Shown in pieces: positions 5,023 to 39,923 of a stretch of DNA of 44,791 bases; position 1 is the stretch's first letter; the number at the start of each line of letters is the position of its first letter. Below the pieces are notes generated by a model. The model was given only the letters and a program-made list of their open reading frames with translations, had not been told where the DNA came from and did no database searches. Both the position numbers and the translations under genes were made by a program. The stretch spans positions 1-44,791 of the forward strand of contig CAYUKX010000002.1 in NCBI GenBank assembly GCA_964445405.1. The letters run 5' to 3'. Origin of the DNA: an uncultured Candidatus Saccharibacteria bacterium (GTDB taxonomy: Bacteria > Patescibacteriota > Dojkabacteria > J137).

Positions 5023-6135
5023 TTACTGACATTGAATTCCGTTAAGAGTAAAGTTGGAACTCAGTAATGGATTATTTGCTCCAGAATAACTCCCTTGGAA
5101 CCCGAAGGCTTGTGTTCCACCATTTGCCAGAATAATCTGGTTGTATACGGCATCATTTGCCGTTACTGCTGTTCCAGTTTGCGACCAAAGTGTATTCCAG
5201 GCATTAGTTATTACTTGGTTCCCAGTAAAATTCCATAATAAACTCCATGTACTAATATTATTTGCAGATATATTTGTAATTACAACATCGGCATTAAACC
5301 CATTCGCCCATTGACTAGTTATTGTGTAGTTAACTTGACAGTAATTTGAGTTTGGAACCCCTGGGTCTTCAATTACACCATCCAATATTGCGTCACAAGG
5401 GGAGCCATTAACTAAAATTATTGAATCCACAGGTGCATAATTATATCCTGTATAACTTGCTTCAAACCCAAACGTCTGAGACCCACCATCGGCAGCAATT
5501 AATGAATTATAGCCAAGATTAGTACCTGTAAATAAATTACCTGATTGTGACCAACCTGTATTCCATGCGTTCAATATTGTTTGATTCCCTGGAAAATTCC
5601 AAGTTATTGTCCAGCCATTAATATCAGTTGGAGTGTTGTTGGTAATAGTTACATCGGCTGTAAAGCCGTTTAAATATGCATTTGTAATTTTATATAACGC
5701 TGAACAATTCCCAGCTGTCATAATCTCAGGAACTTCGTCCCAAAGTGTGACTATCGTGGAGGGATTCACTGTTGAAATATGAGTATGAACTTTTCTAGTA
5801 ACATTTCTAACAGTGGAGGATGTGTTTATTTCCCGGTTAGTATTACCTGTACCAGTTATATTGTAAATAGTGCAGCTTTCTCCGCTAAAAGATAGAGTTT
5901 CGTTTCCTGTATAAGCAGTATTAAGTTTAAGTTTGTTTATGGCAATTTCGGCACAGCTATGTGCAAGGCTTCTGGCCTCTATAGAAGATAGTGAATTAAA
6001 GCTTGTTGTAAATGAATCATTCGAAACTAATATCGTAGAAGTAATAATCATTGCTGTAGCAATCATCAGTATTAAAACACTAGTTATAGTTGTAAAGCCT
6101 TTCTTTAATTTTTTATCTGAGTGTTGCTGTTGCAT
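5023..6135 (-). CDS. PilX/GspK-like minor pilin carrying two C-terminal CBM2 carbohydrate-binding modules
   Basis: The N-terminus KKGFTTITSVLILMIATAMIITS is a pilin-like hydrophobic helix without Glu5. Residues C144-C247 and C266-C369 each fit the CBM family 2 pattern (C..Y.I...W.NGF.ADV.ITN....I..W...WNF.GNQ.I.NAWN..WSQ.G..........YN..I...GG.Q.FGF..SY.G.N........NG..C). It is the last gene of the pilus operon and overlaps the preceding gene by 23 nt. Confidence 0.8.
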   Translation of the reverse strand: MQQQHSDKKLKKGFTTITSVLILMIATAMIITSTILVSNDSFTTSFNSLSSIEARSLAHSCAEIAINKLKLNTAYTGNETLSFSGESCTIYNITGTGNTNREINTSSTVRNVTRKVHTHISTVNPSTIVTLWDEVPEIMTAGNCSALYKITNAYLNGFTADVTITNNTPTDINGWTITWNFPGNQTILNAWNTGWSQSGNLFTGTNLGYNSLIAADGGSQTFGFEASYTGYNYAPVDSIILVNGSPCDAILDGVIEDPGVPNSNYCQVNYTITSQWANGFNADVVITNISANNISTWSLLWNFTGNQVITNAWNTLWSQTGTAVTANDAVYNQIILANGGTQAFGFQGSYSGANNPLLSSNFTLNGIQCQ

Positions 6136-6625
6136 AAAATGTTTGAGAATAATCCAGAGCTGGTTTCCCGGTTGTATTAATGTATGTTACTGTAATTTCT
6201 ATTCTTACTGACCCTACAGCAAAGTTTTCTGTTACATTTCTGAACGTAAGAGACGAAATAGTTACCCTATTAGAATTTAAAGTATTTGCAGGATTACTAC
6301 CTTCGGTAATGGTTATATTGCCTCCACTTAAAGCTATTCCTGTTGGACTGTTAGCCGCGCTAGCCATGACTAGTGATAGAGTACTTCCGCTATTCCCAAT
6401 TGTAGGTGTATTTACTGCACTTGCATTTCTAATGGTTTGAGTTAGTTTAGAAATTATAGATGTGGCTTCTGAACTAACAATCGACATAGCTTCGCCACGG
6501 TCTCGAGTATCGCTTGCTGTAACCCAAAGCATTGCAATCATTAATACTAGTACAGAAGTCAGTGACATATAAAGCAGAACTTCTATTAGTGTAAATGCTT
6601 TTTTTGTATTTATATTAGTTTTCAT
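6113..6625 (-). CDS. Minor (pseudo)pilin, PulJ/PilW-like, prepilin-type N-terminus
   Basis: N-terminus is MKTNINTKKAFTLIEVLLYMSLTSVLVLMIA (class III signal, Glu at +5). It has a 1-nt overlap with the upstream gene. Confidence 0.8.
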   Translation of the reverse strand: MKTNINTKKAFTLIEVLLYMSLTSVLVLMIAMLWVTASDTRDRGEAMSIVSSEATSIISKLTQTIRNASAVNTPTIGNSGSTLSLVMASAANSPTGIALSGGNITITEGSNPANTLNSNRVTISSLTFRNVTENFAVGSVRIEITVTYINTTGKPALDYSQTFYATATLR

Positions 6626-8022
6626 TAGTTTGGTTTGTAAATCATTACTTCTTGAGTATTATTGCTACCAACACCAAATACTCTGTCTAATAGAGGATTA
6701 TAGAAAACATCATTTAGGTTTCCGGTATAGGCCAAACTTCCAAATACTGTCGGGCTTGCAGCGTTCGTTGCATCATAAATTGTAAGTTGGGTAGAAGTAG
6801 CGTCTGCTTGAAAAATATATGGTAAAGAAACATCACCAGTTATTGATAAGCTTGTTGCTCCCACCGCAAATCCGGCACTATTTAATGCAGTTGGTGCAAG
6901 TGGATTAGTTATACTAGCTAAAGATATTGTTGTTCCCCTTTGCAATGCCACACCTAGAGAGTATCTAGCAATGTCCGCGGCATCTGTGTTCCCGGATAAA
7001 TCTAATCCACTTGCAAAAGCAGGTAGGGCGGGGTTAGATATATCGTATATGGTTAACTCAGCATTATTAGCCGAACTTGCAAGATACGCGTAGTTACCTT
7101 CAACCAAGAGTTTAAATATGTTTGCTGCTATTTGTGCGGATCCAAGCAGTGCAGGCGATGCAGGGTTTGTTAAATCGTAAATATATAATTCTGGATCTGT
7201 ACTTGTAGACCTTGTTAAATAGAGCCTATTGTTAAGAACAAAAACACCATTTGCATTGGCTGTTCCTGGCATGTTCACAGTTACAAGTGTTGGCGCAGTT
7301 GGAACAGTCACATCAACAATGTTTAGTTCATTCGTATTACTAGAAGATGCCAAATACACATAATTACCATAAGCTGCAATATCCGCTAAGGTCCCAGTTA
7401 TGCTTATTGTTCCTTGAATAACAGGTGCTGCTAAATTGCTAACATCAACAACAGTAAAATTACTTGCACTACCTGTTCTTGCAACAAATATTTTGTTCCC
7501 GAATTGAAGAACTTCAACAGCATCGGTTGTTCCTGAAAGGTCAATACCACTTTGCAAAGATACACTAGCCCAAGTTTCGTTTGTGGCTGTAGGTCGTTCC
7601 CAACTTGTAAGTTGAACAGTTGCATCTATTGCCCTAGAACTACTACTATTTTGCCAAGATACTGTAACGGTCACTTGTTTTGTATAGGCATCGATTGTCG
7701 ATATTTGTACCGCACGTGTAAAACCATCAACGGAGTCAGATGTTCCTACAAATGCCCAGGAACCAGCAGATAAACCTAAACCATATGTTCCATTAGTTAA
7801 ATTCGAATATGAATTATCTTTTATACTTGTAACTGCTTCTATTCCTTCCTCTAATAGAAAGTTGGCTTTGTTTTCTAAGTTCGCTTGTGATTGTGCAAAA
7901 ATACCATAAGAAAGTGAACCTGCAAGTGTAACAGCAATAATACTTATTAATGCCAATGCTAAAACTACTTCAACAGTAGAAAATCCTCTTAAGTTTTTAG
8001 AATGTAATTTGACCTTTAGCAT
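6625..8022 (-). CDS. Modular minor pilin: prepilin N-terminus fused to an LVIVD-repeat beta-propeller-like domain
   Basis: N-terminus LRGFSTVEVVLALALISIIAV has Gly -1, Phe +1 and Glu +5. The C-terminal ~315 aa contain repeated GNY(V/A)YLASS..NELNIVDV..P.AP / ELYIYDLTNPASP / ELTIYDISNPALP / QLTIYDATNAASP units, typical of LVIVD repeats (PF08309). Confidence 0.8.
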   Translation of the reverse strand: MLKVKLHSKNLRGFSTVEVVLALALISIIAVTLAGSLSYGIFAQSQANLENKANFLLEEGIEAVTSIKDNSYSNLTNGTYGLGLSAGSWAFVGTSDSVDGFTRAVQISTIDAYTKQVTVTVSWQNSSSSRAIDATVQLTSWERPTATNETWASVSLQSGIDLSGTTDAVEVLQFGNKIFVARTGSASNFTVVDVSNLAAPVIQGTISITGTLADIAAYGNYVYLASSSNTNELNIVDVTVPTAPTLVTVNMPGTANANGVFVLNNRLYLTRSTSTDPELYIYDLTNPASPALLGSAQIAANIFKLLVEGNYAYLASSANNAELTIYDISNPALPAFASGLDLSGNTDAADIARYSLGVALQRGTTISLASITNPLAPTALNSAGFAVGATSLSITGDVSLPYIFQADATSTQLTIYDATNAASPTVFGSLAYTGNLNDVFYNPLLDRVFGVGSNNTQEVMIYKPN

Positions 8023-18384: not shown

Positions 18385-18396
18385 TATTTAAGGTTT

Positions 18397-18413
18397 GGGG
18401 GCATTCTGCCCCC
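18397..18413. terminator. GC-rich hairpin between convergent rubrerythrin and island-1 ORF
   Basis: GGGGGCA-ttc-TGCCCCC lies 13 nt after the rubrerythrin stop and 6 nt before the minus-strand ORF stop. Confidence 0.65.
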
Positions 18414-18418
18414 ACCTA

Positions 18419-18685
18419 CTAATCTCGAGCGTCCCATTTTTGCCGTGCCCGCTCATTGGCTTTACGGACTGCGTTGTCCGCAATCATGAGGGGGCGGATC
18501 ATCAGCCACAATGCTGCGGCCCACCCATCAAACACTAAAAGGGTCAACTCGACACTTCCCCCTACAAAATTGTTTACAATCACGTAGGGGCCCATTGTAA
18601 GTAGCATTAGTTGTGGCAGGCTCGCGTAGAACCAACCTAGCACCACAGCTAATACGATCAAGAGCTTTACAGTTCTGCCAAGCAT
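18419..18685 (-). CDS. Small (88 aa) two-helix membrane protein encoded in G+C-rich island 1
   Basis: AGGAG sits 5 nt upstream of the ATG. Hydrophobic segments are KLLIVLAVVLGWFYASLPQLMLL and VELTLLVFDGWAAALWLMIRPLMI, with a charged tail. Codon usage (GCG, CGC, CTG, CCC) is unlike the neighbours. Confidence 0.55.
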   Translation of the reverse strand: MLGRTVKLLIVLAVVLGWFYASLPQLMLLTMGPYVIVNNFVGGSVELTLLVFDGWAAALWLMIRPLMIADNAVRKANERARQKWDARD

Positions 18686-18713
18686 TTTAGCTCCTAGACC
18701 TTTGCTTGCTTGA

Positions 18714-18722
18714 ATTATAACA
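18714..18722 (-). promoter_or_regulatory. Extended -10 promoter element for island-1 ORF
   Basis: The minus strand reads TGTTATAAT (TGnTATAAT), ~29 nt upstream of the ATG. There is no good -35. Confidence 0.4.
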
Positions 18723-18816
18723 TCTCTTATTCGATTGGCAGATATAGCTATTCTTTATTGACTTGAATAAGAATTAGTTTTAAACTCAGAATAACTTAAA
18801 TTATTAACTATAAAAC

Positions 18817-21890: not shown

Positions 21891-24221
21891 TTATTTCTCA
21901 GCTTTTTCCTTTAACTTTTTCTCAGCTTTGTTTTCGTAGCTTGAAGTAAAGTTACTATACATATTAGTTAGGAAATTAGTTTTGCTACCTAATCCAAATT
22001 TCATTGAAAGGTAACCCCCTAATATAAACAATGTTCCTATTATTAGTAATCTTGCGTCATCTTCTAATGCTGTTTGTGGAATTACTGGAATTACACTACA
22101 ACCATTTGTACATGTTGATGCTGTACATCCATTCAAAATACACTTGTTTGCTGAACAACTATGATTATTAGGACATTCACTGTTTGTAGTACATGGTCCT
22201 CCACATAATGGAACACAACCGTTTGTACATGTAGAACCTGTACATCCATTTAGTACACACTTGTTACTTACACAACTATGGTTGTTAGGACACTGTGAAT
22301 TTGTTGTACAACTTGATCCGCAAACTGGAACTGTTGGTGTACATGTATTGTCTGAACAATTACCTGGTGTTAAGCAAGTATTCAATTTACACACATTTGC
22401 ATCACAAGTATGACCTTGTGGACATAAGTTATTAGTTGAATTACATGATGCTCCACAGGCAACTTCTACAGGACAAGCTCCACCAGATGCTGCAGCTTCG
22501 CAGTTAGAATTTGACGTCCAACCACTTGGGCAAGATGTTCCATTAAACTGTTGATTTTCACAAGCATTTGCATCTGTAGTGCCAACTGTACATCTGTAAC
22601 ACTGTATTGTTGGTTCAGTACAAGTTAATGTGTTTACAGTTAACGTATTAGTATATAAATTTGGTATTCCTAAGAATGCAACTCTAACGTAATAAGTTTT
22701 TGCAGGATCAATTGTATAAGGTGAACCGTTCATTGTAAATCCAGTAGGTGCTACAGTTTGGTTAGTTCCTAGTGCAATGAATTTTGTACCTCTGCTAGCT
22801 ACTGCAAAGTCATTTCTGTCACTTATATCAACTGCATAAGCATGTCCTGATGCATTATTTGCGTTTCCAGTTACAGTATTCCAGTTGATAGTTATTTGAT
22901 TACTATTTGCTACACATGCTGCAGCTCCACTTACTGTTGGGGTTTCAACTGGACAAACTCCACCTGTTGCAGCCGTTTCGCAACTTGAGTTATTAGTCCA
23001 ACCTGTTGGGCAAGATGTACCATCAAATTGTTGATTTTCACAAGCATTGCCATCTAGTGTTCCAGTAGTACATCTATAACAAGTTATCTTTGGTATTTCT
23101 ACTGCACAGGCACCACCAGTTGCAGCAGTTGAACATACAGAGTTTGTAGTCCAACCAGTTGGGCAAGACGTACCACTTACAGTTTGGCTAGTACATGTAT
23201 TACCATCGTTTGTTACATCAGTACATTTATAACAAGTTGTTTGTACAGTTAAATTACATAATTGTTGAAGTTGTGCTGGTGTAGGATTTTGACCATTTAG
23301 TAAAACATAACTATTGTATTGATCTCTATCAACGCACTTAGCAGTTGTTAATTGTGCAGCTCCTGCACCTGTAATTGGTGCACAGTATGTTGTATCACTT
23401 ACATTTGGTCTTGAGTTTGTACATGCTGGACCAACAATATATCTACATTCAGATTTACCATCAGCACATAAGCCTACACTTGCATTACATGTTTGACCGC
23501 AAGTTCTACCTGCTGAACAGTCGCAATTTGCACCAAAAATAGTTTTTCCAACAGGACAAAATACATTTGCACATTTCTTAACTCCACCACCTTCATCTCT
23601 ACAAACTACTGTTCCTCCGTTTGCAGCACCTTTACAATCAGCATCGCTATTACATGTTTCCCCGCATACTCTTTGAGTTGGTGCACATTGATTATTACAG
23701 TTTGAGCTTGTATAAGTTCCATTTGTATCATCTCTTACACAAGAATTACTACTACATTTATATTTAGGTGTTGCTTGGTTACAATCCCCAGTATAGTAAA
23801 CAATATAGTCTATTAGTCCACTATTATAGTCATTGCTATTGAATACGTCTATTTGAACAGTAACTCCACACTCACCTGTAGGAACGGATTCAGAAGTTGT
23901 GAATCCATTGTTTTCCCAGAATGGTGTAGCACCACCGCCTCCGCACTCATCATGTCTTCCAGTACACTTAAACATTTTTACAGAAGCTACACTATTACTA
24001 CAAGATGTTCCTGTACATTTACGAGCAGGACAAGTAGACCCACCACCCGAACAACCAATTCCTGTACCACAGCAGTTAGTAAATGCTGATCCAGTAAATG
24101 CACCTGTTTCTGTAGGCGCTTGGCTTTCTTGAAGCTTTACAGTTACGTAAATACTTACACCCGCAAGTATTACCGTAAGGAAAATTAATATTGCTAGGGT
24201 GATCTTTTTTCGGTTTGACAT
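21891..24221 (-). CDS. Large cysteine-rich modular surface protein (N-terminal signal-anchor, three 6-Cys modules, FN3-like insert, knottin-like C-terminal repeats, C-terminal anchor)
   Basis: N-terminal helix is ITLAILIFLTVILAGVSIYV. Three ~48-aa modules read TCY(K/R)CT....D.N.C..Q...GTSCP(T/S)GWT.NS.C..AA.GG.CPVE. The repeats CG.(S/P)CTTNS(Q/E)CPNNHSC..NKC(V/I)LNGCT.STCTNGC follow. The C-terminus is IPQTALEDD + TM. Confidence 0.85.
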   Translation of the reverse strand: MSNRKKITLAILIFLTVILAGVSIYVTVKLQESQAPTETGAFTGSAFTNCCGTGIGCSGGGSTCPARKCTGTSCSNSVASVKMFKCTGRHDECGGGGATPFWENNGFTTSESVPTGECGVTVQIDVFNSNDYNSGLIDYIVYYTGDCNQATPKYKCSSNSCVRDDTNGTYTSSNCNNQCAPTQRVCGETCNSDADCKGAANGGTVVCRDEGGGVKKCANVFCPVGKTIFGANCDCSAGRTCGQTCNASVGLCADGKSECRYIVGPACTNSRPNVSDTTYCAPITGAGAAQLTTAKCVDRDQYNSYVLLNGQNPTPAQLQQLCNLTVQTTCYKCTDVTNDGNTCTSQTVSGTSCPTGWTTNSVCSTAATGGACAVEIPKITCYRCTTGTLDGNACENQQFDGTSCPTGWTNNSSCETAATGGVCPVETPTVSGAAACVANSNQITINWNTVTGNANNASGHAYAVDISDRNDFAVASRGTKFIALGTNQTVAPTGFTMNGSPYTIDPAKTYYVRVAFLGIPNLYTNTLTVNTLTCTEPTIQCYRCTVGTTDANACENQQFNGTSCPSGWTSNSNCEAAASGGACPVEVACGASCNSTNNLCPQGHTCDANVCKLNTCLTPGNCSDNTCTPTVPVCGSSCTTNSQCPNNHSCVSNKCVLNGCTGSTCTNGCVPLCGGPCTTNSECPNNHSCSANKCILNGCTASTCTNGCSVIPVIPQTALEDDARLLIIGTLFILGGYLSMKFGLGSKTNFLTNMYSNFTSSYENKAEKKLKEKAEK
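22092..22322 (-). repeat. Two tandem ~38-aa eight-cysteine (knottin/EGF-like) units
   Basis: The units are CGSSCTTNSQCPNNHSCVSNKCVLNGCTGSTCTNGC and CGGPCTTNSECPNNHSCSANKCILNGCTASTCTNGC. Confidence 0.85.
22461..22604 (-). repeat. Third copy of the six-cysteine module, after the FN3-like insert
   Basis: Residues 540-587 read QCYRCTVGTTDANACENQQFNGTSCPSGWTSNSNCEAAASGGACPVE. Confidence 0.85.
22938..23237 (-). repeat. Two tandem ~50-aa six-cysteine modules (coding repeat)
   Basis: Residues 329-378 and 380-428 of the 776-aa protein align position for position. Confidence 0.85.
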
Positions 24222-24290
24222 ATATTAGTCCACTGTAAAGTAATTTATAGTTAGTATTTCAAAATTTGATGTACATGTCAATTTTATAGG

Positions 24291-25457
24291 TTAGTTTTTT
24301 CGTCGGTATTTAGTTCCTATTAAATTTGCGACTATATCTTCTCCTATTTGAAATCTAAAAGTGATTATTGCAATTAAAATAAATATAAATCCTATAAATA
24401 CCAACCCTATACCATCGCCTAACGCTGTGTTTGGTAGAGCGTTGTTATTAGTAGAATTTGCTGTATTTGATGTTGGTATTGCACAAGAGTGTTTTGATAA
24501 TAATGCAAATGTGTTGGTGTTGCCTGTGGTGTTGCTTGTATTATAAGTTACAGTTGTACTAGAATTTGTTCCATTCTGAAATGTAGATAATTTTTCTTTA
24601 GGAATTTTAAGTTCATAAGTAACTGTTTTAGTTTGATTCGCAGTATAAGTTCTAGCAGCCGAACTTTCTGCCCACGTAATTTTATTACCAGCAGTAGTAC
24701 CAGTGTTGCTTACATTTAAAGGGGTAATTCCATTCGTAACTAATGTATTGTCAAATGTTTCTTCAACTTTTGTTATAGTTCCACTAACGGTGCTTATATT
24801 TGTAATACTAATTGTATACTTTATTAATGCATCACCTGAAGTTTCGCATGTGGCTGCGTAAGAGTTAGTAATTCTAAATTGTGGCTCAGCTAGCTGAGTT
24901 GTACCATTATTCGTATTATTATTTGTCCCAGTATTATTACCGGTATTCGAGTTTGTGTTTCCAGTCTGTGGAAATGAAGCAGGGAATGAGGCAGGAAAAG
25001 ATACTGGCGCAGTTGTTCCTGTGCAAGCAGTATTAAATTTTTTTATTGTAGTTCCGCATGCTCCTAGGGAATTTACACCAGATGTTTCAAGCTCTAAATA
25101 CATTTGAACCGTACCGCAAGTGACACCACCTAAATAGCTATTAAGGTTAACTGATCCACCTGAAGCAACTGGACTAATTGGAATTTCGATTGGATTACTT
25201 GAAATACATTTTTCATTGTCACGCTTTAATTCATTACAAAAGTGAATGTAAACTTTTGATGGATTACATACCCCTGACGGTATTGTACATGTGTTAGTAG
25301 TATTATTGCAGTTTGCAAGTATTGGATTTGTTTGTGCTCCTGTTTGACTTTGTAGGTTATTGTTATTAATCACTGAGCTGATTAATATACTTACCCCAGC
25401 CAATACTACAGTGGCAATAATAAGAATTGCGATTAGCAGTTTTCTATTCTTAGTCAT
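24291..25457 (-). CDS. Surface protein paralogous at both termini to the 776-aa protein; N/T-rich linker and DUF11-like domain
   Basis: I prefer the start at Met15 of the tracked ORF because MTKNRKLLIAILIIATVVLAGVSI parallels MSNRKKITLAILIFLTVILAGVSI next door. A DUF11-like pattern is present (GDALIKYTISITN.S..SGTITKVEETFD...KITW). The C-terminus is LPNTALGDG + TM + basic tail. Confidence 0.75.
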   Translation of the reverse strand: MTKNRKLLIAILIIATVVLAGVSILISSVINNNNLQSQTGAQTNPILANCNNTTNTCTIPSGVCNPSKVYIHFCNELKRDNEKCISSNPIEIPISPVASGGSVNLNSYLGGVTCGTVQMYLELETSGVNSLGACGTTIKKFNTACTGTTAPVSFPASFPASFPQTGNTNSNTGNNTGTNNNTNNGTTQLAEPQFRITNSYAATCETSGDALIKYTISITNISTVSGTITKVEETFDNTLVTNGITPLNVSNTGTTAGNKITWAESSAARTYTANQTKTVTYELKIPKEKLSTFQNGTNSSTTVTYNTSNTTGNTNTFALLSKHSCAIPTSNTANSTNNNALPNTALGDGIGLVFIGFIFILIAIITFRFQIGEDIVANLIGTKYRRKN

Positions 25458-31914: not shown

Positions 31915-33021
31915 TTAAATTTCAAGAATAAAACTGACGCCTTTATGAGGATTATTTTTTGCTTCAATTTCCCCACCCAGAACTTCTACGATCTCCTTTA
32001 CAATAGCTAAACCCAAACCTAGCCCACCTGTTGTCCTGTTCCTTGATTTTTCAACTCTATAAAATCGCTCAAAAATCTTTTTTATATCTGCTTCGGGAAT
32101 GCCTACACCATTATCACTGATTGTTATTCGGTTATTATGATTGCTTACTAATATTTGGTTCCCTTTTGAGTATTTAATTGCATTGTCAATTATATTTATA
32201 AAAACCCTTTGTAATAAGTACTTATCGGTACTAATGGTTAATTGTTTATCTACGTTATTACTTAGTTTTATATTATTCTTAAAAGACTTTTGTTCCATGC
32301 TTTTAGTCACTTCTTCAATTAAATTATAAATATTTACATCTTCTATTTTTTTATCAGGCAGTTTGGTTCTTAATTTTGTATATTCATATAGCATATCTAT
32401 TAAGCTATTTAGTCTTTGAACCTCCTCAAGTGTACTATTTAGTCTTTTTTCATCTGCGTCAAACACACCGTCTATCATGCCTTGAATTTGCCCGTTTATT
32501 GATGTAATTGGTGTTTTAAGCTCATGTGCTACATCAGAAATTAAATCTTTACGTAATGTTTCTTGGTATTCCAATTCACCAGCTAGATCGTTAAATTCTT
32601 CGATTACTTGGTCAAATTCACTTTCTCCGGTTTTAATTAACTTATTTTTAAATTTGCTTCGCTTTAGATTTGCTATGCCTAATCTAAGTTCTCGTAAGGG
32701 TTGTGTAATAATTATAGAGAAAATGACTCCTGCAATTAAGGACATTAGTAGGCCTAAAGCTCCGGCAAAGAATAGAGTATTAAACAAAGAATCATTAAAT
32801 TGTTTTCTTATAACTTCTACCGGCGCAACTGGGGACTGTTTTACCAAAAAAAGATTTCCATCAATAAACCTTATTGTTGCGCTCTGAAACTCGCTCTGAG
32901 CGGTGGTAATTGCAAAAATGCTAATATAGGCAAGCACTATGCCAGTAATTAAAAAAATACCTGCAAATATTTTAACTGAGGTTTTAGAAGTAAATTTTTT
33001 AATACTTGATTTTATGTTCAT
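31915..33021 (-). CDS. Sensor histidine kinase (TM-ectoloop-TM, HAMP, HisKA, HATPase_c)
   Basis: H-box is SDVAHELKTPIT. N/G boxes are DNAIKYS, DNGVGIP and GGLGLGLAIVKEIVE. It overlaps the regulator gene by 4 nt. Confidence 0.88.
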   Translation of the reverse strand: MNIKSSIKKFTSKTSVKIFAGIFLITGIVLAYISIFAITTAQSEFQSATIRFIDGNLFLVKQSPVAPVEVIRKQFNDSLFNTLFFAGALGLLMSLIAGVIFSIIITQPLRELRLGIANLKRSKFKNKLIKTGESEFDQVIEEFNDLAGELEYQETLRKDLISDVAHELKTPITSINGQIQGMIDGVFDADEKRLNSTLEEVQRLNSLIDMLYEYTKLRTKLPDKKIEDVNIYNLIEEVTKSMEQKSFKNNIKLSNNVDKQLTISTDKYLLQRVFINIIDNAIKYSKGNQILVSNHNNRITISDNGVGIPEADIKKIFERFYRVEKSRNRTTGGLGLGLAIVKEIVEVLGGEIEAKNNPHKGVSFILEI

Positions 33022-33689
33022 AGGCTATCGTTGAATTTGTAACCTTTACCTATAACAGTAAGTATAAATTCAGGTAATTCATTATTGATTTTTAATTTCT
33101 TTCGAATATTTTTAATATGAACATCAACAGTTCTATCTAAAATATCTGAACTACCAAAGTCATTGTAAGCTTTTAAAATGATATTTTCTCTATCAAAAAC
33201 TTTCCCGGGATTTTTAAATAGTGTTACTAGTATATTAAATTCAGTTGTAGTTAACTCAATTGGTTTATCTAACACTTTTACTTGTTGTTTTTCTTCATCT
33301 ATTTGCATGTACTCATTAGAAAGTAATGCGCTATTTGTTCGTTTTATTAGTGCTTTAACTCTTGCAACCAATATTGCAGGATTAAATGGTTTTTTTAGAT
33401 AATCATCAGCACCACATTCAAGGCCAATCAGCTCATCTTGGTCTTCAATTCTTGCTGTTACCATTATTATTGGGATATTTGATTTTGCGCGAATCCTTTT
33501 GCAGACTGTAATTCCATCTATGTTTGGAATGTTAATATCTAGAACGACTAACTCAATATTGAGCTTTTCAAATAAGCTTAAAGCTTTTGCACCTGTTTCT
33601 GCTTCAAATATTGTAAATCCAGCTTTTTTTAAATAAGCTGTTTCTATTTCTCTGATTGAGTTTTCGTCTTCGACAACTAATATATTCAT
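33018..33689 (-). CDS. OmpR/PhoB-family response regulator
   Basis: The receiver reads MNILVVEDE..VVLDINIPNIDG..MVTA. The winged-helix output reads LTTTEFNILVTLFKNPGKVF..VDVHIKNIRKK..TVIGKGYKF. Confidence 0.92.
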   Translation of the reverse strand: MNILVVEDENSIREIETAYLKKAGFTIFEAETGAKALSLFEKLNIELVVLDINIPNIDGITVCKRIRAKSNIPIIMVTARIEDQDELIGLECGADDYLKKPFNPAILVARVKALIKRTNSALLSNEYMQIDEEKQQVKVLDKPIELTTTEFNILVTLFKNPGKVFDRENIILKAYNDFGSSDILDRTVDVHIKNIRKKLKINNELPEFILTVIGKGYKFNDSL

Positions 33690-36332: not shown

Positions 36333-36361
36333 TTGAGAATTATATACTAATAATATATAAT
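36333..36361 (+). promoter_or_regulatory. Sigma-70-like promoter for island-2 ORF
   Basis: TTGAGA, a 17-nt spacer and TATAAT (perfect -10) lie ~27 nt upstream of the ATG. Confidence 0.5.
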
Positions 36362-36387
36362 CCAGTGTGCATATACGGAGGTGTTGG

Positions 36388-36807
36388 ATGAAAACCCGAG
36401 CTTTTAATTTGGTGGTTGCGGCAATTGCTGTTGACTTGCTACTAATATTAGTCGTAGTGGCAACGTCACCTTTGGTGAGTTCGGGCAGTTCGGACTGCGA
36501 TGTAGTGCGTCAGGCGGGGCCAATGATTTGGTCTCGCAACCTGGACGGGTTGACAGGACTGTTGGATGGTCAGGATGTCGACCATCTGCGCTCGGTCGCA
36601 CCTGATTGTGGATATCCGCAGTCGATGTGGCTTAGTACGCCGACTTACGGTCCGACGCCCACATTCAGCTGGAATTGCAGTGCCGAATCTGAGAGGATTA
36701 CGCGGAATCAGAGAAATCCGCGGGAGCTCGGCACAGCAGTCCGCAGGCTAAACCAATGTCGCGCGCAGCTCGCGGCGACTGCTACGGCAACATACCGTAG
36801 CCCCTAA
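36388..36807 (+). CDS. Small (139 aa) signal-anchored, 4-Cys protein encoded in G+C-rich island 2
   Basis: GGAGG at 36377-36381 lies 6 nt before ATG 36388. The N-terminal helix is FNLVVAAIAVDLLLILVVVATSPLV. A hairpin terminator follows directly. Coding status is uncertain because G+C-rich DNA yields spurious ORFs. Confidence 0.45.
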   Translation: MKTRAFNLVVAAIAVDLLLILVVVATSPLVSSGSSDCDVVRQAGPMIWSRNLDGLTGLLDGQDVDHLRSVAPDCGYPQSMWLSTPTYGPTPTFSWNCSAESERITRNQRNPRELGTAVRRLNQCRAQLAATATATYRSP

Positions 36808-36814
36808 CGTGCAA

Positions 36815-36837
36815 AGCGCCACCCAAAAGGTGGCGCT
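36815..36837. terminator. GC-rich hairpin after island-2 ORF
   Basis: AGCGCCACC-caaaa-GGTGGCGCT starts 8 nt after the stop codon. Confidence 0.7.
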
Positions 36838-36873
36838 AAAGTTTCTACTATATATTGTCAATCTTGAATCCTT

Positions 36874-37428
36874 CTATTTTATATATCTTGAAATATCTCT
36901 TTGGTGCTCTGGGTGCTTTTTTATATAAGCTAACGATACTGGATCTAAATAGTATCTGTTGTGTGCGACTTCTTCTTGAACCATTTTTGCAAAATATGCT
37001 ACAACAAAGGAGATTGTAATAAACGTGGTATCGTTTGCAAAAACTGTTTGAGATATTATGTATAAAGGAAAGAAGAACTCTAATAGATTTGGATAATATA
37101 TTAAATATTTTGAGTTTTTAGTCACTTCAAAAAATATACTGCCAATAATTCTTAGAACAAAATAAGCTACAAATAACCATAATAATTGGTAGTTTGTATA
37201 CCATACTGCAAGCACCATGTAGAAAACAAATAATAGATCTAGTACTTTATCTATCATCTGATAGGTTATATATCTAGCACCACTTCTGAGCGCGAACGAA
37301 TAATCAAAGGCATCTAAAACAAAAGTTATAAGCCATGCTAATAATGGTTGAGTTAAAAAAAGTGGGAAAATAAAAATTCGTATAAGTATTATTACTGAGT
37401 AAGCAAGTTTAAAGAACAATTTATACAT
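36874..37428 (-). CDS. Polytopic membrane protein, unknown function
   Basis: The 184-aa protein has about 5 hydrophobic helices and native AT-rich composition. It shows only a weak DxxD....DxxxD resemblance (LDAFDYSFALR..IDKVLD) to CDP-alcohol phosphatidyltransferases, which is not enough for a call. Confidence 0.55.
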   Translation of the reverse strand: MYKLFFKLAYSVIILIRIFIFPLFLTQPLLAWLITFVLDAFDYSFALRSGARYITYQMIDKVLDLLFVFYMVLAVWYTNYQLLWLFVAYFVLRIIGSIFFEVTKNSKYLIYYPNLLEFFFPLYIISQTVFANDTTFITISFVVAYFAKMVQEEVAHNRYYLDPVSLAYIKKHPEHQRDISRYIK

Positions 37429-37511
37429 ATATTTATTAGATTTGCTAATTAATTGTATATACTTTAGGTAAATCCAGCAGAGAAGTCAAATACAAGGAAA
37501 ACAGGTGAATA

Positions 37512-37540
37512 TTGACAAAAGTATATATTGGATATATACT
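37512..37540 (+). promoter_or_regulatory. Near-consensus sigma-70-like promoter for island-3 ORF
   Basis: TTGACA (perfect -35), a 17-nt spacer and TATACT lie ~40 nt upstream of the GTG start. Confidence 0.55.
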
Positions 37541-37579
37541 ATATATGTATTTAACAATCGAATTGATGGGGGTGTCAAG

Positions 37580-37912
37580 GTGTTGAAGTCATGGTATTTG
37601 CTGGGGTTGCTCACGTTCCTGGTTTCAGGAGCGATTGCCTCGGTTAATCCGCAGGCAGCGGCTATTTGGAGCGGTTTCGTGAGCATTCTCGCAATTTCTG
37701 CGGGATTAGGGTTTTCCTTAGGGGTAACCATCGTTTTTGCTGTGGCAAAGGGGATCGCCAATGGGTTTACTTTGTTTTTTAACCCGTTCGCGCGGATCGA
37801 CAACCGTGAAACGGACGAAAAAGTCCGTTACATCAACGTAGTCAACATCCTCTGCCTGTGCGCGCTTCTTTGCGTGCATGGGTACATCATCATTGCCGTC
37901 GCGCTCAAGTAG
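37580..37912 (+). CDS. Small (110 aa) membrane/secreted protein encoded in G+C-rich island 3
   Basis: GGGGG at 37568-37572 lies 7 nt before an in-frame GTG at 37580. A signal-like N-terminus (SWYLLGLLTFLVSGAIASVNPQAAA) is followed by two further hydrophobic segments. A strong terminator follows. The tracked ORF start at 37505 lies inside the promoter. Confidence 0.5.
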   Translation: MLKSWYLLGLLTFLVSGAIASVNPQAAAIWSGFVSILAISAGLGFSLGVTIVFAVAKGIANGFTLFFNPFARIDNRETDEKVRYINVVNILCLCALLCVHGYIIIAVALK

Positions 37913-37926
37913 CGTACGGCAAATAC

Positions 37927-37959
37927 AAAAAGGGCGGAATCTTCGGAAACCGCCCTTTT
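37927..37959 (+). terminator. Intrinsic terminator after island-3 ORF
   Basis: AAAAAGGGCGG ... CCGCCCTTTT has an inner TC/GA pair closing a TTCG loop and is followed by a T-run. Confidence 0.8.
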
Positions 37960-38047
37960 GCAGGTCTATTCGACAAACTCCATTTTTTTGCTTGCTCAAA
38001 ATCAACTTTCAAATTATTATATTCTAACTATTTCAAAGTAAATTTTT

Positions 38048-38503
38048 ATGGAAAACAAATCAATTGTAGCAGCGTTAATTGTAATAGTATTTTTAGTAGG
38101 TATATTATTTTTTACAAGCAAACCAGTGGAAAATTCACGAACACAAACAGCAACAGATACTCAATCTAATGCACAACTAACAGAATTAAAAAAGGAAACC
38201 CTAAAAGAGGGAACAGGTGACAGACAAGTTCAAACAGGTGATTTAATAAGCGTACATTACGTAGGTACACTGTTAAATGGTACAAAGTTTGATAGTTCAA
38301 GAGATAGAGGAACACCTTTTGAATTTACAGTAGGTAGCGGAGTCATTGAAGGTTGGAGTGAAGGTGTTGTAGGCATGAAGCAAGGCGAAACAATTAAACT
38401 TTCTATTCCTGCGGAATTAGGTTACGGTGCTCAGGCCGTTGGTTCTATTCCTGCAAATTCAGATCTATACTTTGAAATTGAATTAATGGAATTCAAAAAC
38501 TAA
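38048..38503 (+). CDS. Membrane-anchored FKBP-type peptidyl-prolyl cis-trans isomerase
   Basis: An N-terminal TM is followed by VHYVGTLLNGTKFDSSRDRGTPFEFTVGSGVIEGWSEGVVGMKQGE..IPAELGYG. Confidence 0.92.
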   Translation: MENKSIVAALIVIVFLVGILFFTSKPVENSRTQTATDTQSNAQLTELKKETLKEGTGDRQVQTGDLISVHYVGTLLNGTKFDSSRDRGTPFEFTVGSGVIEGWSEGVVGMKQGETIKLSIPAELGYGAQAVGSIPANSDLYFEIELMEFKN

Positions 38504-38521
38504 AATTTTTTAACGAAATTT

Positions 38522-38547
38522 AAGAGCACCACCAGGTGCTCTTTTTT
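38522..38547 (+). terminator. Intrinsic terminator after FKBP gene
   Basis: AAGAGCACC-acca-GGTGCTCTT is followed by TTTT. Confidence 0.8.
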
Positions 38548-38643
38548 GTTTACTACAAATTCATAATGCAGTAGTAATGTTGTATAGAATTGTAGAAATC
38601 TTTGTGATATTGTAAATAGATTAGCACTTTTAACCACTATTAA

Positions 38644-39258
38644 ATGGATGGGAATCCTTTCTTTGAAAAACCTGCATCTAAGCCACAAAATTGGTTTATT
38701 ATCATATTACAAACGCTTGTAATATTCACTTCTATAGGGATTATTATGTACCTTTTTGTAATATCACCTAACGAAGTTGACGGTCCATCAATGGAGCCAA
38801 ATTTTTACACTCATCAAATATATTTTGCGAATAGAGTAGTTCAGTGGCTAAATGGTACAGAGTTTGGTAAGGTCACAGGCTTTCAATATCAAAGAGGAGA
38901 CGTTGTTGTTTTACAAATTCCTAACTATCCATCTTTTATAAAAAGAATAGTTGCATTGCCAGGCGACAAGATCGCAATTCGCGATGGGAATGTATATATA
39001 AATGATAAGCAAATTTCTGAAGACTATTTGCCACCTGCATTGTATACTAAAGGCGGTGATTTTTTAGAAGACGGTGGTGAATCCCAAATTGTACCGCCTG
39101 GAGCAGTATTTGTTATGGGTGATAACAGAGCAGTTAGCTACGATTCAAGGTATTTAGGCTTTATTCGTAATGACTGGCTAAAAGGAAAAGTCTTCTTAAG
39201 AGTCTTTCCACTAGATGTATTTGGCCTAATTCCTACGGGAACAATAAATTACAATTGA
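38644..39258 (+). CDS. lepB: Signal peptidase I, paralog 1
   Basis: VDGPSMEPNF (catalytic Ser), IKRIVALPGD (Lys box) and GDNRAVSYDSRYLGFI are present. Confidence 0.92.
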   Translation: MDGNPFFEKPASKPQNWFIIILQTLVIFTSIGIIMYLFVISPNEVDGPSMEPNFYTHQIYFANRVVQWLNGTEFGKVTGFQYQRGDVVVLQIPNYPSFIKRIVALPGDKIAIRDGNVYINDKQISEDYLPPALYTKGGDFLEDGGESQIVPPGAVFVMGDNRAVSYDSRYLGFIRNDWLKGKVFLRVFPLDVFGLIPTGTINYN

Positions 39259-39923
39259 AAATGAAGAATCCATTTAAAAGAAATAACACTGAAACTAATT
39301 TCAGTGAAAAAAAAGAGAAGTCCGTCTTAATAGATTTTTTACAATCTGTTACTCTTGCAATTATTTTTTCGTTTATTATATTCAGCATAATTACTCCTAG
39401 CGAAGTAGATGGACCATCAATGGAACCAACCTTCTATAATACCGAAAGAGTTTACACAAACAGATTACCACAATGGTTTAGCACCACAGATATTGGTAAA
39501 GCTTTAGGTTTAGGCTATAACAGAGGTGATGTAATTGTCTTTTTTAAGCCAACAATGGGTAGTTCATTAATTAAAAGAATAGTGGGGTTACCGGGTGACA
39601 CAATTAAAATCGAAGAAGGTAAAGTATATGTAAACGGTCAATTAATTGTGGAAAATTATTTACCTGAAGACATTTATACAAAGCCTGGCAATTTAAGAGA
39701 AGGTCAGGAATATAAGGTACAACTTGAAGAAACAGATACGAATGGCAACCAGATTATTGATCAAGATGTATTTTTTGTAATGGGGGACAATCGAGCTGTA
39801 AGCAACGATTCAAGATACATTGGCTTTGTTAAAAGAGAGTGGATGCAAGGTAAAGTTATTTTTAGACTTTGGCCTTTAAATAAATTCGGAATAATTAATC
39901 CTGGTGACTACGAGTTAAAGTAA
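39255..39923 (+). CDS. lepB: Signal peptidase I, paralog 2
   Basis: VDGPSMEPTF, IKRIVGLPGD and GDNRAVSNDSRYIGFV are present. It has a 4-nt overlap with paralog 1. Confidence 0.92.
   Translation: MKMKNPFKRNNTETNFSEKKEKSVLIDFLQSVTLAIIFSFIIFSIITPSEVDGPSMEPTFYNTERVYTNRLPQWFSTTDIGKALGLGYNRGDVIVFFKPTMGSSLIKRIVGLPGDTIKIEEGKVYVNGQLIVENYLPEDIYTKPGNLREGQEYKVQLEETDTNGNQIIDQDVFFVMGDNRAVSNDSRYIGFVKREWMQGKVIFRLWPLNKFGIINPGDYELK

Follow-up and report, generated by a model that had tools for sequence, protein, structure and literature searches.

A contig of 44,791 nucleotides from an uncultured Candidatus Saccharibacteria bacterium (contig CAYUKX010000002.1 of assembly GCA_964445405.1; GTDB lineage Bacteria; Patescibacteriota; Dojkabacteria; J137), referred to here as the window, contains three short GC-rich islands (islands 1, 2, and 3) in otherwise AT-rich DNA. 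The islands share a common layout, in which a predicted sigma-70-like promoter located in AT-rich DNA is followed by a Shine-Dalgarno (SD) sequence, one small open reading frame (ORF), and a GC hairpin. The explanation favored here, with a confidence only somewhat above even, is that the islands are moron-like, fast-evolving accessory genes for envelope proteins, and that selection on a structured, SD-dependent mRNA maintains their GC content. This common design had been recognized in an initial annotation of the window and is confirmed by the present analysis; the accompanying proposal of three independent foreign insertions, possibly captured from a host, is not. In what follows, coordinates without a prefix are window coordinates, and L-numbers (L001 and so on) denote loci or contigs of relatives. 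The relatives of the TypA protein encoded in the window are found in metagenome-assembled genomes (MAGs) of Candidatus Dojkabacteria (WS6, Patescibacteria).

The composition of the islands differs markedly from that of the surrounding DNA. The mean GC content of the window is 32%. The GC content is 0.512 in island 1 (18390-18690), 0.553 in island 2 (36362-36840), and 0.509 in island 3 (37560-37960), compared with 0.322 in the window outside the islands, where 300-nt windows have a mean of 0.323 +/- 0.036 and a maximum of 0.433. At third codon positions, the GC content (GC3) is 0.56 in the ORFs of islands 1 and 2 and 0.64 in that of island 3, while the native reference set (the 39 window ORFs of at least 150 aa) has a GC3 of 0.22 +/- 0.03 with a range of 0.16-0.31, indicating that the compositional anomaly is located at synonymous sites. 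The sharp change at the SD described previously is borne out, as the step in GC content falls within ~20-40 nt of the SD on one side of each island and of the hairpin on the other. Since the shift begins at the SD and stops at the hairpin, it tracks the transcript and not a wider tract of DNA.

The same junctions are present inside contigs of independent assemblies from other samples. Contig L002 contains typA, island 2, the gene for a 184-aa membrane protein that separates islands 2 and 3, and island 3, while L001 contains island 2, and L075 contains island 1 together with the rubrerythrin gene. The reproduction of the arrangement inside these contigs rules out an assembly chimera; the islands do not lie at assembly breakpoints, and the corresponding loci of relatives do not have ordinary composition. 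Structural RNA genes are the usual source of GC islands in AT-rich genomes, and a few GC islands in the relatives are indeed RNase P RNA or tRNAs. Genes of this kind (RNase P, transfer-messenger RNA [tmRNA], signal recognition particle RNA, and similar) were rejected for the three islands, as ARAGORN identified no tRNA or tmRNA in the whole window and an Rfam search of the whole window gave no match at gathering score and only sub-threshold chance matches in E-value mode. An integron, transposon, or insertion sequence cassette was also rejected: repeats, whether direct or inverted, are lacking at the island edges apart from short AT-rich matches expected by chance, as the initial annotation had stated, and no mobility or phage genes were found among the neighbors.

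The expression signals of islands 2 and 3 lie on the forward strand. The promoter-like site of island 2 (36333..36361; TTGAGA-17-TATAAT, 11/12 matches), which has a homologous counterpart in the corresponding place in L005 and L078, precedes an SD (36377..36383; GGAGGTG, 4 nt ahead of the ATG) with a predicted anti-SD duplex energy of -13.3 kcal/mol. The gene itself (36388..36807; 139 aa) is followed by a GC hairpin (36815..36837; -18.1 kcal/mol) that is a putative terminator with a weak U-tract and has a near-identical counterpart in L005. The promoter-like site of island 3 (37512..37540; TTGACA-17-TATACT, 11/12, with a palindromic AT spacer) is kept in L003 and L004 and also ahead of different ORFs in L007 and L188; the spacing of ~84 nt originally reported between the start of the 184-aa gene (37428) and the -35 box of this promoter (37512) proved exact. 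An SD (37568..37574; GGGGGTG, -12.2 kcal/mol) then precedes the 110-aa gene (37580..37912), which has a GTG start codon (ATG in L003 and L004), and a GC hairpin with A- and T-run flanks (37928..37959; arms 37928-37937 and 37950-37959; -19.2 kcal/mol) may act as a bidirectional terminator. This hairpin is 100% conserved in L002, L003, and L004. Island 1 lies on the reverse strand, where a promoter-like site with an extended -10 element (18714..18741; CTGCCA-16-TG-TATAAT, 10/12) and an SD (18690..18695; AGGAGC, -6.5 kcal/mol) precede the 88-aa gene (18419..18685). The hairpin located between the convergent rubrerythrin and island 1 genes (18392..18416; -17.1 kcal/mol) is a putative terminator shared by both. 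In all three islands the hairpin directly follows the stop codon, with energies of -17 to -19 kcal/mol.

The lack of SD motifs in the native genes, which had also been noted initially, is supported by the anti-SD duplex energies of 44 native genes. All except one (43/44) are weaker than -6 kcal/mol, with most near 0, and the lone exception (33018-33689, -8.4 kcal/mol) has its SD-like site inside an upstream ORF. The hairpin is not distinctive of the islands, as the native FKBP gene is also followed by a hairpin terminator, a canonical bidirectional intrinsic terminator at 38522-38543.

Islands 2 and 3 are located between typA and the gene for a membrane-anchored FKBP isomerase, and the content of this gap has been compared among relatives. 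In L006, whose typA is 89% identical, the gap is empty, with typA and the FKBP gene adjacent. Only a homologue of island 2 is present in L005, L008, and L078, and alleles of islands 2 and 3 lie ~190 bp apart in L003 with no 184-aa gene. In L007, the gap is instead occupied by another GC-rich membrane ORF, of 106 aa, which follows an island 3-type promoter and precedes a 354-aa gene. The accessory content of the typA-FKBP gap is therefore variable, and the flanking genes are neighbors in a relative that lacks the islands. The 184-aa gene (36874..37428, reverse strand), which encodes a polytopic membrane protein and has a GC3 of 0.24 and no SD, was previously regarded as native, but it is absent at this locus in L003, L005, L006, L007, L008, and L078 and is therefore itself accessory. 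Its product has no match in Pfam, PHROG, NCBIfam, or PADLOC. A degenerate copy of the island 2 promoter region is present in the typA-FKBP intergenic region of L006 (L006:9870-9930), and this remnant suggests that the island 2 gene was lost there.

Atypical GC content is routinely taken as a sign of recent horizontal transfer, and the persistence of island 2 bears on this interpretation. An exhaustive HMMER search of 1.84 billion protein representatives with the island 2 family returned 8 matches, of which ~7 are true relatives. The match P0009 (881 aa, with ~10 tandem repeats that resemble part of the island 2 domain at E=1.7e-11) was rejected as spurious, as it looks like a translated tandem DNA repeat. 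The six relatives read at the DNA level (L003, L005, L008, L076, L077, and L078) are all found in AT-rich contigs. Orthologues of island 2 occupy the same typA/FKBP position in at least four genomes that are separated by saturated synonymous divergence (typA synonymous divergence, dS, >1.5; proportion of synonymous differences, pS, of 0.74-0.98 for island 2). The GC3 of the family is nevertheless 0.43-0.56 in seven loci, as compared with ~0.2 in neighboring genes, and two of these loci (L076 and L077) are in other genomic contexts. Mutation pressure alone would erase a foreign GC3 over such divergence, suggesting that something maintains it.

These results make it unlikely that the islands are recent horizontal acquisitions, in which three pieces of DNA from GC-richer donors (a host bacterium or a mobile element) would have arrived with their own SD and terminator and would not yet have ameliorated. 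Such acquisition would account for codon usage, SD sites, and hairpins unlike those of native genes and for the variable content of the locus. It is also possible for island 1 taken separately, whose only known copy is 99% identical (in L075). In contrast, the island 2 orthologues remain GC-rich at one site despite saturation, every family member read at the DNA level resides in an AT-rich genome, and the promoters are AT-rich and kept in place, with the remnant in L006 suggesting loss in that lineage. A search of IMG/VR and PLSDB identified no viral or plasmid relatives of any of the three islands, and an origin from either source was rejected on this basis.

The differences among homologues of islands 2 and 3 are dominated by the third codon position. 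For island 2, the proportion of nonsynonymous differences (pN) is 0.34-0.47 against a pS of 0.74-0.98 in comparisons with L003, L005, and L008, and the ratio of nonsynonymous to synonymous divergence (dN/dS) for island 3 is 0.27-0.42. These patterns of substitution indicate that the island ORFs are real coding genes. The island 2 product is hydrophobic only in one N-terminal transmembrane anchor helix, which is followed by a hydrophilic domain of ~100 aa containing four conserved Cys and by a Thr/Ala/Pro tail. The homologues share the anchor, the 4 invariant Cys, the motifs CG[YF]P..W and T.T[FY]S..C, and a tail that ends in Pro. The AlphaFold (AF2) model of this protein has an all-alpha domain past the anchor (predicted local distance difference test score, pLDDT, 68), and the domain is probably extracytoplasmic and disulfide-bonded. 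The island 3 product appears to be a small polytopic helical membrane protein, with 3-4 membrane spans from hydropathy and three long helices in the best AF2 model (pLDDT 83.5; the other four models score 53-61), while the island 1 product has, by hydropathy, a pair of hydrophobic helices followed by a basic C-terminal tail. The description of each ORF as small and hydrophobic thus holds for islands 1 and 3 and, for island 2, is limited to the anchor. The three products are unrelated to each other, which excludes the suggestion that they form one protein family.

The genes of islands 2 and 3 have evolved rapidly and in a manner that does not follow a tree. The identities among island 2 homologues (37-46%) are out of step with those of typA (83-91%), such that the closest typA pair (window and L078, 91%) is the most divergent island 2 pair (37%). 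The alleles of island 3 are 72-73% identical, and comparison of the window with the L004 allele reveals a mosaic, with 92-100% identity in the flanks and promoter and at either end of the ORF, against 56-62% across 37687-37812. The promoter and terminator of island 3 are more conserved than its synonymous sites. Patterns such as these are expected where alleles are exchanged, or polymorphism is old, at loci subject to diversifying selection, and they would fit a predicted role as surface-exposed envelope proteins. Hypervariable surface and immunity loci under frequency-dependent selection similarly have divergent alleles between conserved flanks, mosaicism, and strain-variable content; the islands differ from such loci in adding a compositional anomaly, SD sites, and structured mRNAs. 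A bacteriocin and immunity pair was considered based on the adjacency of islands 2 and 3 in L003, but obligatory pairing was rejected because island 2 occurs without island 3 in L005, L008, and L078, and an island 3-type cassette occurs without island 2 in L007. Hypermutation of island 3 by a diversity-generating retroelement was rejected as well, as inspection by eye of the variable tract shows that L004 differs from the window at bases of every type and not specifically at adenines, and no template repeat is present in the locus; no systematic search of the whole window for a reverse transcriptase was made. The 106-aa polytopic membrane ORF next to typA in L007 (L007:9519-9915, identical in L097) has a promoter and 5' region homologous to those of island 3 and no detectable protein similarity to the island 3 product. 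This ORF is either an extremely diverged island 3 orthologue or a replacement of the ORF behind a conserved promoter.

The mosaic allele of L004 with its near-identical flanks, the incongruence of island 2 with typA, and the conservation of flanks above synonymous sites would also be expected of a recombination hotspot, at which promoter and terminator serve as homology arms for allele swapping and biased repair lifts the GC content of the ORF. This form of GC-biased gene conversion is judged distinctly improbable as the source of the anomaly. Effects of GC-biased gene conversion reported in bacteria are far smaller than a shift in GC3 from 0.22 to 0.6, and the process explains neither the co-occurring SD sites nor the excess of mRNA folding described below. 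Island 1 gives no sign of allelic exchange, its comparison covering a single 99% identical copy.

The folding of the island mRNAs has been probed using two types of shuffled control. Compared with dinucleotide shuffles, the full island transcripts have z-scores of -4.5, -8.0, and -4.5. In a stricter test, the ORF alone was folded and synonymous codons were shuffled among positions, such that the protein and the codon counts remained fixed. This test included 13 GC-rich cassette ORFs: the three genes of the window with their alleles and homologues, plus two soluble orphans that share the design but are unrelated to them (from L188 and L076). The mean z-score of the cassette ORFs is -3.1, with 11/13 at or below -2, as compared with a mean of -0.08 and 1/15 at or below -2 for 15 native window ORFs (Mann-Whitney p = 5e-5). 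The z-scores of the island 1 mRNA are -3.5 and -4.8. The SD region is base-paired in both the minimum free energy (MFE) and consensus folds predicted for islands 2 and 3. The predicted fold of island 3 places the SD in a duplex with a segment far away in the sequence, and the 5' end is paired to sequence immediately upstream of the terminator.

Taken with the persistence of GC3, these findings suggest a model in which each island is a self-contained monocistronic unit, in which a single small ORF lies between a sigma-70-type promoter with its SD and a GC hairpin. The products would be lineage-restricted, fast-evolving accessory envelope proteins of a Candidatus Dojkabacteria clade: an anchored extracytoplasmic domain (island 2), a membrane protein of ~3-4 helices (island 3), and a two-helix membrane protein with a basic tail (island 1). 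Without recognizable mobility machinery, the units would come and go, or be exchanged for others, at sites where relatives have the two neighboring genes side by side. The GC richness would then be a stable, transcript-delimited property kept by selection at synonymous sites and not the footprint of a recent import. The likeliest target of this selection is an unusually stable, highly folded mRNA, which would need an SD for ribosome recruitment in a genome whose other mRNAs are AU-rich and SD-less and rely on unstructured leaders. We infer from the same data that RNA stability or SD-dependent translation is the selected trait, and the proteins may function on the cell surface, where a host or phage would impose diversifying pressure.

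Among known systems, units of this type most closely resemble the morons of phages. The moron (Hendrix/Juhala concept; definition quoted in PMC4378225) is a promoter-ORF-terminator unit of odd composition that lies between genes adjacent in relatives and whose insertion mechanism is unknown. Like morons, the islands contain a single ORF with its own promoter and terminator (predicted, with weak U-tracts), lie, in the case of islands 2 and 3, between genes adjacent in a relative (typA and FKBP in L006, with island 2 alone in L005, L008, and L078), and differ in composition from their neighbors (GC3 0.56-0.64 vs 0.22 +/- 0.03). They also lack a recombinase target or repeats, and the products of morons are likewise often membrane or accessory proteins. 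Unlike phage morons, the islands reside among housekeeping genes in the cellular chromosome of a Candidate Phyla Radiation (CPR) member, without PHROG matches or IMG/VR relatives, and island 2 is old and syntenic, with a composition kept over saturated divergence and no donor found. On this view, the islands are a new, long-lived kind of moron-like accessory unit that resides in a chromosome and whose signature of composition and translation appears to be selected. Searches of the CPR literature found no description of such genes.

Several points weigh against this model. The promoters, the terminators, and the use of the SD sites are predictions, and a terminator scan of the window did not call the island hairpins, as their U-tracts are weak or inside the stem. 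The folding z-scores rest on 30-40 shuffles of MFE predictions, and two of the 13 GC-rich ORFs (island 2 of L005 and the 106-aa ORF of L007) have no excess structure. Covariation in favor of a specific island 3 fold is thin, with three sequences, 9 double changes, and invariant long-range pairs. The comparison for island 1 is limited to its single 99% identical copy, and the taxonomic placement of L076, L077, and L188 is provisional. Searches of the island products against Pfam, PHROGs, NCBIfam, PADLOC, PDB sequences, and PDB folds (Foldseek) returned nothing usable. Finally, patterns similar to those expected from selection on mRNA structure would also arise if GC itself, rare codons, or resistance to nucleases were selected.

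A bolder reading of the same features, regarded as rather unlikely, is that GC-rich, hyper-structured, SD-led transcripts form a separate expression channel for orphan accessory genes, such that composition encodes regulation and not ancestry. The mRNAs in such a channel would be unusually long-lived, or their translation would depend on an accessible anti-SD, the analogy being to Flavobacteria ribosomes without bS21. In Bacteroidia, ribosomes are blind to the SD, and the rare SD-bearing genes (rpsU, prfB) are specially regulated (PMC7797042, PMC9976891). The islands are similar to these genes in that a few strong SDs occur in an otherwise SD-less genome, which suggests a separate translational regime. 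They differ in that the phylum is another one, the genes are accessory and not ribosomal, and the SD coincides with a GC-rich structured mRNA; sequestration of the anti-SD in Dojkabacteria would be an analogy only, and the window contains neither a 16S rRNA gene nor a gene for bS21.

The small hydrophobic products and structured transcripts are also reminiscent of toxic membrane proteins akin to type I toxins or holins, in which a stable, folded mRNA with a sequestered SD would keep translation off until triggered. The similarities to type I toxin mRNAs (hok, tisB, aapA-like) include the small hydrophobic products of islands 1 and 3, the holin-like charged C-terminal tail of the island 1 product, the stand-alone promoter and terminator, and the highly folded mRNA with a paired SD (predicted, z -3 to -8), in which the SD of island 3 is paired at a distance. 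Type I toxins are usually hydrophobic proteins of <60 aa, while the island products have 88, 110, and 139 aa, and the island 2 product is mostly a hydrophilic, anchored or secreted Cys domain. The islands have no homology to such toxins. The same design is used for soluble proteins (in L188 and the 117-aa ORF of L076), there is no lysin nearby, and no match to PADLOC or PHROG was obtained. Neither an antisense promoter nor a small RNA was found within the ORFs or overlapping them; on their opposite strand the island ORFs contain no promoter-like site, and a weak one (9/12) lies at 38042-38013, downstream of the island 3 hairpin. This toxin or holin function is accordingly judged quite improbable. 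The possibility raised initially that the islands are structured RNAs with chance ORFs is partly supported, as the mRNAs are unusually structured (strongly negative folding z-scores) and several overlapping ORFs are present in GC-rich DNA, which naturally has few stop codons, but non-coding RNAs with fortuitous ORFs are scarcely credible given codon-structured substitutions with pN<pS, Cys and motifs conserved across homologues of 29-49% identity, conserved start codons and SD sites, and the lack of an Rfam match at gathering score or with a meaningful E-value.

If selection on structured, SD-dependent mRNA is indeed responsible for the islands, horizontal transfer calls based on composition can mislead in CPR genomes, and reduced, SD-poor genomes can maintain a few genes whose post-transcriptional regime differs from that of the rest. 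It is surprising, and testable, that a "foreign" composition persists alongside excess mRNA structure. Moreover, orphan, fast-evolving envelope proteins of an uncultured, probably host-dependent bacterium are reasonable candidates for factors in host or phage interaction.

Further units of the same design have been observed outside the typA-FKBP locus. A scan of metagenomes for the island 3-type promoter pattern gave at least 120 matches and was unspecific, as most are generic AT-rich promoters; only L097, which contains the same cassette as L007, and L188 were informative. In L188 (L188:4123-4560), an unrelated AT-rich contig (GC 0.34), the promoter TTGACA-17-TATACT and an AGAGGTG SD precede a soluble 107-aa orphan with a GC3 of 0.55 and a GC hairpin. 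A similar soluble orphan of 117 aa with a GC3 of 0.65 is found in L076 (L076:5120-5590), demonstrating that the design is not confined to membrane proteins. A hairpin of ~22 bp lies just upstream of the SD of the island 2-family genes in L076 (L076:561-616) and L077 (L077:5921-5975), which are two different contexts. Between these loci the hairpin has 3 compensatory and 2 one-sided changes, and the non-coding flanks are conserved too; it may be a 5' stabilizer or a regulatory element. Contig L005 (JACSRR010000189.1) is labeled as an Ignavibacteriaceae MAG, yet it has a typA/island 2/FKBP locus of the Dojkabacteria type with a TypA identity of 89%, and the contig is probably mis-binned.

The remaining genes in the neighborhood have housekeeping functions. 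The neighbors of the islands in the window encode a two-component system, Smr, TypA/BipA, the anchored FKBP isomerase, two S26 signal peptidases, a HemN-like radical SAM protein, and rubrerythrin. The variable locus adjoins the FKBP isomerase gene and the two tandem S26 signal peptidase genes (38048-39923). This neighborhood for secretion and folding may have a bearing on the products of islands 2 and 3, which are exported or membrane proteins, or its position may be a coincidence. The window also contains a broad, mild rise in GC content (0.36-0.41) at 5101-7800 and 22201-24300, which lies inside long native ORFs and does not represent islands of this type. In two relatives, a tRNA-Pro(CGG) gene is found in the vicinity of typA, within the variable typA-FKBP region in L007 (L007:8384-8456) and ~7 kb upstream of typA in L065 (L065:2958-3030). 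The codon read by this tRNA ends in G; native genes seldom use it, and it is common in the GC-rich cassettes.

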